A stretch of DNA of 64,000 bases, from the NCBI RefSeq assembly GCF_051903065.1, contig NZ_CP178438.1, one strand, 5' to 3'. The notes beneath the pieces were generated by a model that saw only the letters and a list, made by a program, of their open reading frames with translations, made no database searches and was not told the origin of the DNA. A program made the translations under genes and the position numbers. Shown piece after piece: positions 12,962-14,237 of this stretch (its first letter is position 1; each line of letters starts with the position of its first letter). This DNA is from Escherichia coli (GTDB lineage Bacteria > Pseudomonadota > Gammaproteobacteria > Enterobacterales > Enterobacteriaceae).

Positions 12962-13621
12962 TCAGAGATGGTATGCCGGTATTTTGTGGGTTGTTCCCGT
13001 CAGGTTATCGTGCACCTCCACGGTCGTGGTCACCACCGGCATTCCGGCCTTTCTCAGCCTCAGGACATCAGCCGCAATACGCTGACTGCCAAACCAGAAC
13101 AGGCCGTCCAGTGCAGTCACCAGTAAACCTGCCTCCAGCGCATACTTCAGCCGTTCACGGGGCGCTTTCACTTCCCTGGCAACCTGCTGATATGGCGATG
13201 ATGTGCTTTCATTCCCAACCACGCGACGAATACGGTGAGACAGATGATACCGGTATATATCCGGCACACCAGAAAGACTGGCCTTCAGGCTGTACACGCA
13301 GCCAAACCGTTTATCGTTGAACACCACATTTTTCTGGCTGATGCCCCATTCTTCACGCAGCGCGGCAATCAGTTGTGGTGTCCGGGTAAGCAGCAAGCGA
13401 AAAGGCAGCTCAAAACTGGTGACGTAATCCACATTCAACAATGCAATACGCAGTCGTTCTTCTGGCCCGGCCTCTGTCTGCCGACACTCCTCCAGAACAT
13501 CCTGCCACTGCCGGCGAAGACGGGGCGATTCGTTCCGTTCTGTAAAACAGTATTTATCTGCCAGATAATCAATTCGTGTACGCATACTGAAAAGAATTCC
13601 GTATAAAGATTCAGCAGACAA
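12962..13621 (-). CDS. Hypothetical protein
   Basis: 219-aa ORF co-directional with alpA; no recognisable motif. Confidence 0.4.
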   Translation of the reverse strand: MSAESLYGILFSMRTRIDYLADKYCFTERNESPRLRRQWQDVLEECRQTEAGPEERLRIALLNVDYVTSFELPFRLLLTRTPQLIAALREEWGISQKNVVFNDKRFGCVYSLKASLSGVPDIYRYHLSHRIRRVVGNESTSSPYQQVAREVKAPRERLKYALEAGLLVTALDGLFWFGSQRIAADVLRLRKAGMPVVTTTVEVHDNLTGTTHKIPAYHL

Positions 13622-13673
13622 AACTTTATCAGTCTGTAAAAATTAACGGAAGAGTCGATATTTCTCCCGGTCA

Positions 13674-14237
13674 TCACCGGATGATTGTTGCAATAACCAG
13701 TGGCCTCAGAGACTGAACAGCCGTTTTTAACGCAACGTATTGCTCTGATGTATCAGGCCGGGTAACCCGAAAACACCTTTCCACCCGACATTGTCCGCCC
13801 GTATCCATCCCCCGCCAGGTCTGCTGCAGTAAATCCACCACTTGCGAACATTCTTCATCAACTGTCACACTGGCTCGCGGATGGCAGAAAAGCTCCTGGC
13901 TGAACAGCAACAGGCATCGTATTGTTGCTCCTCCATGTTGTTCCCGCAACCAGCGTAATACCACCGGCGAGGATGGACTGGCCGTGTGATTACGCTCAGT
14001 AATACGTTCGTGCACCTGTCGGTAAAAGGAAGTACAGAATGCATGAATCTGTTGCCCGTTGATATTTCCTTCTGCCGAATGGAGTGTGAAGTAAAATGCC
14101 AGCAAATGCGGCCAGTGGTCCACCGCCTGCTGAATAAAACGCCGGATGTCTCCCGGCTCTGAAATTAATGCTTCGGTTATTTGCACGAAATGTTCCTTTT
14201 CAAACCCTGTTGAATTTTGTTCAGCCGGTGCAGACAC
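13674..14237 (-). CDS. Hypothetical protein
   Basis: 187-aa ORF immediately downstream of alpA on the same strand; no recognisable motif. Confidence 0.4.
   Translation of the reverse strand: MSAPAEQNSTGFEKEHFVQITEALISEPGDIRRFIQQAVDHWPHLLAFYFTLHSAEGNINGQQIHAFCTSFYRQVHERITERNHTASPSSPVVLRWLREQHGGATIRCLLLFSQELFCHPRASVTVDEECSQVVDLLQQTWRGMDTGGQCRVERCFRVTRPDTSEQYVALKTAVQSLRPLVIATIIR

Follow-up and report, generated by a model that had tools for sequence, protein, structure and literature searches.

Two kinds of described element stand closest to the locus reported here. In Escherichia coli K-12, the island CP4-57 is ordered alpA, yfjI, yfjJ and then cargo, and YfjJ, like YagK of CP4-6, belongs to the PF11726 and PF23343 (REP_ORF2-G2P) families. 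Furthermore, according to a 2025 study, the gene core of related Pseudomonas transfer-messenger RNA (tmRNA) islands with defence cargo probably comprises IntY, AlpA, a Gp2-like protein and RadC, and jumbo-phage transduction has been demonstrated for these islands (PMC12595487). Here, we analyzed two adjacent minus-strand genes, belonging to the UCP030791 and ECs1377 families, in a stretch of 64,000 nucleotides of E. coli contig NZ_CP178438.1 (assembly GCF_051903065.1; the whole stretch is referred to as the window). Our reading, to which we assign a probability of about 0.55, is that these are two already catalogued genes at the junction of backbone and cargo in a CP4-57-type island, with UCP030791 as a non-catalytic accessory protein and ECs1377 as an autonomous transcription factor, and that neither is anti-phage cargo.

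The DNA of the region is 100% identical to the reverse strand of E. coli GDSC2BY4G (NZ_CP136025.1), from which the labels of the Prokaryotic Genome Annotation Pipeline (PGAP) were taken. In that context, the window lies inside an island of approximately 46 kb at the tRNA-Leu gene leuX; the island integrase is located some 12 kb beyond the left edge of the window, and the island ends near a truncated fimH. The element is a CP4-57-type genomic island: it has a tRNA-adjacent tyrosine integrase, AlpA, a YagK/YfjJ protein and a YfjP/YeeP GTPase, and the annotation of the leuX island also includes DUF932, antirestriction and RadC proteins and a toxin-antitoxin pair of the YeeU/CbtA type. Primase-helicase (alpha, pri-rep), capsid-size redirection (sid/psu/delta) and packaging genes were found neither in the whole-island annotation nor by PHROG and Pfam searches of the alpA-containing module. 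The element is therefore not a P4-like satellite, the type of island invoked in a preliminary description of this DNA, nor a phage-inducible chromosomal island (PICI), and the neighbors are instead the GTPase, DUF932, antirestriction, RadC and YeeU/CbtA genes. With CP4-57 and the Pseudomonas islands, the leuX island shares an integrase at a tRNA or tmRNA gene, AlpA, one or more Gp2-like proteins, RadC, and variable defence or competition cargo. It differs from them in that its alpA module is internal and inverted, within a mosaic island riddled with insertion sequences (IS). UCP030791 corresponds in position to yfjJ of CP4-57, both being the final backbone gene between alpA and the cargo, whereas ECs1377 is not reported among the core genes of CP4-57-type or Pseudomonas tmRNA islands.

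The two genes had first been described as the open reading frames (ORFs) 12962..13621 (219 amino acids [aa], TTG) and 13674..14237 (187 aa, GTG). These coordinates were confirmed, but the lengths are those of the maximal ORFs and not of the genes, which encode 207 and 170 aa, respectively (Table 1). Nearly all full-length UCP030791 homologs (39 representatives of 120 listed homologs) start with MQITEAL, and an AGGAA Shine-Dalgarno sequence lies 6 nt 5' of the corresponding GTG. For ECs1377, the family alignment begins at the ATG of the shorter frame; moreover, the TTG at 13621 adjoins the conserved promoter element described below, so that the 219-aa reading would begin upstream of the likely transcription start. 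Both ORFs are far above chance expectation, which is evidence of coding. In comparisons with E. coli and Escherichia albertii copies, the ratio of nonsynonymous to synonymous substitution rates (dN/dS) was 0.09-0.17 for ECs1377, 0.35-0.48 for UCP030791 and 0.03-0.10 for alpA; ECs1377 is thus under strong purifying selection (dN/dS approximately 0.1). The pair had also been placed directly downstream of alpA and immediately before an IS911-like element. Both statements hold only approximately, as a spacer of 242 bp separates alpA (14429..14665) from the UCP030791 gene, and a remnant of a 77-aa gene (12791..12892) lies between ECs1377 and the IS element.

The protein WP_105078339.1, which is identical to our 170-aa protein, carries the PGAP label "UCP030791 family putative phage-derived protein," and a 95% identical homolog carries a precomputed PF27752 assignment (UCP030791 / PIRSF030791). 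The 170-aa protein itself had no Pfam-A or NCBIfam match, the scanned Pfam set being without PF27752. An exhaustive search of 1.84 billion representatives at 50% clustering identified only 56 relatives, many of them fragments, with full-length members down to approximately 23% identity; among E. coli copies, the length ranges from 165 to 182 aa. Profile-profile alignment with hhalign linked UCP030791 to the 243-aa "inovirus Gp2 family" protein of the window (92.9%, E 3.7e-7, 84 columns), itself a genuine PF11726 protein (E 6e-37), and K-12 YfjJ aligned in the same register (E 0.0016). Weak PF11726 matches were found in 7 of 25 members of the UCP030791 alignment, and co-linear sub-threshold matches in 4 of 10 re-scanned distant members (protein 26-143 to model 2-117; E 7e-4 to 3e-3). 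These profiles place UCP030791 among the YagK/YfjJ (inovirus Gp2-like, HUH Rep) domains, as a diverged form that falls outside the PF11726 model.

Its likeness to YfjJ and YagK thus consists of profile homology and a Rep-like alpha/beta fold, but UCP030791 differs from these proteins in length (170 aa versus 208-243 aa), in forming a family of its own (PF27752) and in its catalytic positions. The HUH motif of the Gp2 protein and YfjJ, HYH, stands opposite T-I-R (residues 88-90, in the strand 88-96, TIRCLLLFS); the family consensus at this position is x-x-R, with no conserved His, and the Tyr of the YfjJ motif vDYmtK stands opposite a Ser. No His or Tyr is invariant at the catalytic positions in the UCP030791 family. 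Both HUH histidines and the catalytic tyrosine have been lost, and the protein presumably lacks nuclease activity. The residues that are invariant in full-length relatives (23-55% identity) are non-catalytic ones, namely D23, P26, L35, F50, R65, P74 and R78.

The AlphaFold2 (AF2) model of UCP030791 is compact and confident (predicted local distance difference test score [pLDDT] 88), with a Rep-like alpha/beta fold of the palm/RNA-recognition-motif (RRM)-like kind. The protein is 6-8% identical to the HUH rolling-circle Rep nuclease domains of Sulfolobus islandicus rod-shaped virus 1 (SIRV1) ORF119, adeno-associated virus (AAV) Rep and parvovirus NS1, without their catalytic motifs. Polymerase palm and GGDEF domains match the model as well as HUH Rep domains do, and the fold alone is therefore no proof of Rep ancestry. 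The idea that the module contains three Rep paralogs was dropped after pairwise BLASTP among its proteins (188, 190/234 and 187 aa) gave nothing significant and hhalign of UCP030791 with the 190-aa module protein was likewise not significant; only the link between UCP030791 and PF11726 is supported. According to the preliminary description, clear homology to known structural or replication proteins of P4-like elements would have spoken against a cargo role. Such homology exists in part, as UCP030791 is a degenerate homolog of the replication-associated Gp2/YfjJ proteins, which are backbone components of such islands.

UCP030791 is the last conserved gene of a co-directional, alpA-containing string that also holds the HUH-bearing protein YagK188. 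Conservation of this context was assessed with four distant UCP030791 relatives (23-31% identity) at eight loci representing six distinct contexts. In all six, UCP030791 follows alpA on the same strand, and since this order is kept, UCP030791 belongs to the backbone. A YagK/REP_ORF2-G2P gene is near UCP030791 in all six as well, within the same-strand string in five and, in the remaining one, split and about 3 kb upstream. DUF7828/Zn-ribbon ORFs are sometimes present in these strings, a divergent arm with GTPase, DUF932, RadC and DUF987 was seen where the flank was long enough, and the genes after UCP030791 vary (reverse transcriptase [RT]+AAA_15, IS elements or DUF2913). ECs1377 was absent from all six contexts.

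In E. coli, gene counts were obtained by blastn at a gene coverage of at least 80% in 5426 complete genomes. The UCP030791 gene was present in 2371 and the ECs1377 gene in 2237 of them, the two were adjacent in 1110, and each was also found without the other. In strain 1008S19, for example, YagK188, the 190-aa gene, alpA, a 52-aa ORF and UCP030791 are followed directly by ProQ/FinO and dndBCDE, while strain WR3-3 has a truncated ECs1377 and the 77-aa gene but no UCP030791. In other genomes, the module is followed by cdiBA, Zorya II, dndBCDE, remnants of a type VI secretion system (T6SS), or IbrAB/POTRA genes. The view that an AlpA operon precedes variable cargo was thereby confirmed, but the two genes themselves are not that cargo: UCP030791 is tied to alpA, and ECs1377 is conserved, separately mobile and situated at the junction. 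The cargo of this island type begins after UCP030791, or after ECs1377 and the 77-aa gene, where the latter are present. A DUF2913 protein follows UCP030791 in three loci of distant relatives, in the slot that ECs1377 holds in E. coli, and also neighbors ECs1377 homologs in 5 of the 79 loci introduced below; DUF2913 could be an alternative or partner junction gene.

The ECs1377 protein matches the equivalog model NF052300 ("ECs1377 family") over its whole length (model 1-190 of 190; 320.2 bits at a cut-off of 190, E 3.4e-96) as well as phrog_24243 (E 4e-57), and the identical protein WP_032216521.1 bears the ECs1377 label in PGAP as well. The match to HTH_39 (PF14090) is below the gathering threshold (15 bits versus 21.3, E 0.023, residues 160-219 of the long ORF); several homologs carry a precomputed PF14090. 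Together with the PF27752 assignment of the UCP030791 homolog, these matches correct the earlier impression that the two proteins have no recognizable motifs. The AF2 model of ECs1377 has a pLDDT of 92, a fold search with it matched only winged helices, and its C-terminus adopts the winged helix-turn-helix (HTH) fold. HTH_39 phage proteins (63-105 aa) superpose on the C-terminal approximately 67 residues with template-modeling (TM) scores to target of 0.6-0.84 and 20-30% identity. Compared with these proteins, ECs1377 has an additional N-terminal domain of 125 residues, for which no significant structural match was obtained. The best conserved positions of the family are found in this domain: nearly every position from 43 to 64 is invariant (ERLR.ALLNVDYVTSFELPFRL) in a set of 28 sequences with overall identities of 67-96%. 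The N-terminal half contains helices at 41-51, 59-63 and 69-80 followed by a hairpin at 83-99, which is the order of elements in a winged helix, and a self-alignment places residues 39-78 in register with 140-179 at 30% identity, which falls short of significance (P 0.04). The model suggests that this basic protein (isoelectric point 9.45) is probably composed of tandem winged helices.

A scan of 100,044 species genomes yielded 80 ECs1377 loci, and 79 of these, each from a different species, were used for neighbor analysis. Among non-syntenic loci, homology reaches approximately 70 nt upstream of the start codon, with a shared pattern of CTTCCGG, 13-17 nt, TGGTAAAGT and then an AGGGAA Shine-Dalgarno sequence. 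The extended -10-like motif was present 30-45 nt before the start in 48 of the 79 loci, compared to 2.5 expected from shuffled sequences, and both boxes in 35, compared to 0.07 expected. Because this promoter-like motif is conserved, ECs1377 appears to be an independent transcription unit, as predicted from sequence, and read-through from alpA is also possible.

The loci originate from Escherichia, Citrobacter, Kosakonia, Serratia, Enterobacter, Klebsiella, Rahnella, Erwinia and other genera. Clustering of all neighboring ORFs at the 79 loci revealed no conserved partner of ECs1377, the neighbors being ordinary chromosomal genes. A tRNA or tmRNA gene lies within 10 kb in 17 of the 79 loci, and in five Citrobacter and Lelliottia genomes the ECs1377 end is 4-75 bp from the 3' end of a convergent tRNA-Arg(CCU) gene. 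The latter position is the usual site of an island integrase. One Erwinia prophage holds a 48% identical copy. A fragment 93% identical to ECs1377 on a 422-bp contig labeled Macrococcus carouselicus looks like E. coli contamination.

ECs1377 lies directly 5' of a T6SS cluster (tssB onward) in three Kosakonia loci, in two Citrobacter loci (Citrobacter werkmanii among them) and in Serratia oryzae. The E. coli gene precedes cdiBA or T6SS remnants; strain CE20 carries a deletion that has joined ECs1377 to tssF, and WR3-3 has T6SS fragments downstream of the gene. These arrangements suggest an old linkage between ECs1377 and the T6SS, but a general link is not supported, as no more than about 8 of the 79 loci have T6SS or contact-dependent inhibition (CDI) genes downstream.

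Furthermore, a 63% identical copy is encoded on 535 PLSDB plasmids, of which 494 are conjugative; its place there is between excA/pnd and nuc/trbA. This homolog is a standard gene of I-complex plasmids such as pNA3664-1 and pMS7163B. In a screen of pMS7163B by transposon-directed insertion-site sequencing, the gene, there named "590" (c(53680..54360)), tolerated insertions, which were enriched after conjugation (log fold change [logFC] +2.94); it was not classed as a repressor by the authors (PMC10286972). Since insertions are tolerated and the logFC is positive, the plasmid copy is dispensable for maintenance and surface conjugation. An equation of the IncI homolog with YggA proved wrong, as YggA is a different, 111-aa protein near oriT. 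With lone copies at many chromosomal sites of Enterobacterales and on some 500 conjugative plasmids, ECs1377 moves independently.

How the two proteins might act can be sketched from these data. UCP030791 would assist or regulate the AlpA/Rep-like module non-catalytically, through binding of DNA or of a protein such as the active HUH protein; the module itself is presumed to serve replication or mobilization after excision. By analogy with HUH Rep domains, the role of UCP030791 may resemble that of a non-catalytic origin-binding domain. ECs1377 would be a sequence-specific DNA-binding regulator that is carried by mobile elements and acts on neighboring acquired genes or on host genes. Its target could be the CTTCCG box of its own promoter; autoregulation is a plausible first guess because a near-invariant HTH and this box travel together with the gene.

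Several observations weigh against our reading of the locus. The UCP030791 protein itself has no PF11726 match at E <= 1, and its hhalign comparison with the YagK188 subfamily was not significant. Its relaxed dN/dS may leave room for partial decay. For ECs1377, the tandem winged-helix assignment rests on the order of secondary-structure elements and on the non-significant self-alignment. A scan for consensus promoters and terminators gave counts not above those of shuffled sequence, so that an operon is neither supported nor opposed. Finally, our literature search found no functional data on UCP030791 or ECs1377, the one mention being a locus tag in a comparative genomic hybridization (CGH) paper.

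Among other explanations, decay deserves the most attention. UCP030791 might be a decaying Gp2/YfjJ paralog kept by linkage, with ECs1377 as the only functional gene of the two. The loss of all catalytic residues, the relaxed dN/dS, the small and fragment-rich family and the variable length among E. coli copies would all fit. However, the frame is uninterrupted, no comparison gives a dN/dS of 1 or more, distant relatives keep the invariant non-catalytic residues and the place after alpA, and AF2 predicts a confident, compact fold, and we consider it unlikely that the gene is a mere relic. Less likely still is a replication module in which ECs1377 serves as a RepA-like initiator or partition-type binder and UCP030791 as an origin-binding domain, the two replicating the excised island together with YagK188; the probable tandem winged helices, the Rep-like fold and the presence of the HUH-bearing YagK188 in the same gene string are in keeping with it. 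A further proposal makes UCP030791 a transcriptional activator of island transfer or excision genes, similar to AcaB of IncC plasmids. AcaB (6n8a) is the best PDB sequence match of the UCP030791 profile, over about 100 residues, and the two proteins are alike in size and both come from mobile elements; we nevertheless regard this role as improbable.

The lowest likelihood falls to the proposal with which the locus was first described, namely that both genes belong to the variable cargo of a P4-like or satellite island and serve phage interference or defence under the control of AlpA. The pair is indeed situated between alpA and the cargo, related islands carry the defence systems Zorya II, dnd and RT+AAA_15 at the equivalent position, and CP4-57 carries abpAB and rnlAB after yfjJ. 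However, a search of PADLOC-DB 2.0 matched no model to UCP030791 or ECs1377 at E <= 1, the only matches in the module being weak HTH ones of alpA. Moreover, the genes are conserved and not variable, being present in thousands of genomes with fixed alpA-UCP030791 synteny; ECs1377 is also seen as a lone gene in core chromosomal surroundings and within the transfer regions of plasmids; and the element is without P4 or PICI hallmark genes. We thus consider such a function very improbable and retain the interpretation of a junction between backbone and cargo.

The remaining features of the region are compiled in Table 1. The right end of the IS3-family element (...TGACCACTACA), at about 12790, cuts both the 77-aa gene and the junction of backbone and cargo. 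This gene normally comes after ECs1377, and intact copies are present at three other loci. The IS3-family element (window 9223-12790) is split by a group II intron (ltrA, 10706..12214; Rfam Intron_gpII, 12218..12304), and the Rfam models isrC and isrN match its left end (9223..9454), probably as IS sequence and not as separate small RNA genes. An Rfam scan of 9000..18500 found no RNA family in the region of the UCP030791 and ECs1377 genes. In the spacer between alpA and UCP030791, the 52-aa ORF had no match in PHROG and PADLOC family scans. Its dN/dS values among E. coli copies, 0.6-1.4, give no indication of coding constraint, and because of them it is probably not a real gene.

In the YagK188 family, H86, H88, Y156 and K159 are invariant, so that the HUH motif and the Tyr are kept. 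A partial protein labeled Bifidobacterium breve is 95% identical to YagK188 and looks like E. coli contamination. A perfect 11-bp inverted repeat with a 15-nt loop upstream of YagK188 (16557..16593, AT-rich) was rejected as a nick site or origin hairpin, as it decays in diverged E. coli copies without compensatory changes. Further to the right in the window follow an H-NS paralog, a second protein of the "inovirus Gp2 family," and then a CP4-57-like arm from the GTPase to YeeU/CbtA. At the other side, positions 1-4200 hold a cluster of dynamin-family, RdcB-family and patatin-like phospholipase genes as island cargo.

Table 1. Features of the alpA module and its surroundings, with positions in the window.
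Feature	Coordinates	Strand	Length	Remarks
ECs1377-family gene	12962..13585	-	207 aa	ATG start at 13585; start supported by homologs and PGAP
UCP030791-family gene	13674..14186	-	170 aa	GTG start at 14186; start supported by homologs and PGAP
Promoter-like element of ECs1377	13623..13652	-		CTTCCG box, 15 nt, extended -10 (TGATAAAGT); -67..-37
YagK188, YagK/YfjJ-type (REP_ORF2-G2P) protein	15554..16120	-	188 aa	Weak Pfam matches, PGAP label; first gene of the module
Hypothetical protein of the same module	14734..15306	-	190 aa	PGAP; no family match
alpA-like HTH gene	14429..14665	-	78 aa	Pfam Phage_AlpA, E 2e-10
ORF in the alpA-UCP030791 spacer	14274..14432	-	52 aa	PGAP call; overlaps the alpA stop; doubtful as a gene
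5' remnant of a conserved 77-aa gene	12791..12892	-	34 codons	PGAP "incomplete, missing C-terminus"
IS3-family (IS911/ISEc31-like) element, 3' part	12295..12790	+		Truncates the module
H-NS family paralog	17931..18371	-	146 aa	IS256 fragments on both sides; a few kb from the module

In conclusion, both families are already catalogued, with curated but function-less RefSeq labels, and are very common and ordinary. Our analysis removes a false lead, in that neither gene is a new cargo or defence system. What it retains is the assignment of UCP030791, by predicted fold and ancestry, to the Gp2/YfjJ-type Rep domains with loss of the catalytic residues, the view of ECs1377 as a predicted independent unit that has its own promoter and is carried by almost half of the complete E. 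coli genomes, and a map of the boundary between backbone and cargo in this island type. A more far-reaching interpretation, which we consider doubtful although somewhat more credible than the relic explanation, is that ECs1377 proteins are unrecognized, self-promoted regulators with tandem winged helices, an invariant N-terminal HTH of about 30 residues and an extended -10 promoter of their own, which hop between mobile elements (islands, I-complex conjugative plasmids and lone tRNA-adjacent chromosomal sites) and control T6SS/CDI or host genes, with UCP030791 as a dead HUH paralog that regulates or inhibits the Rep-like enzyme of the island. If ECs1377 does regulate T6SS/CDI loci or host genes, the finding would be moderately interesting to students of pathogenicity islands and of the "y-ome" of E. 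coli.

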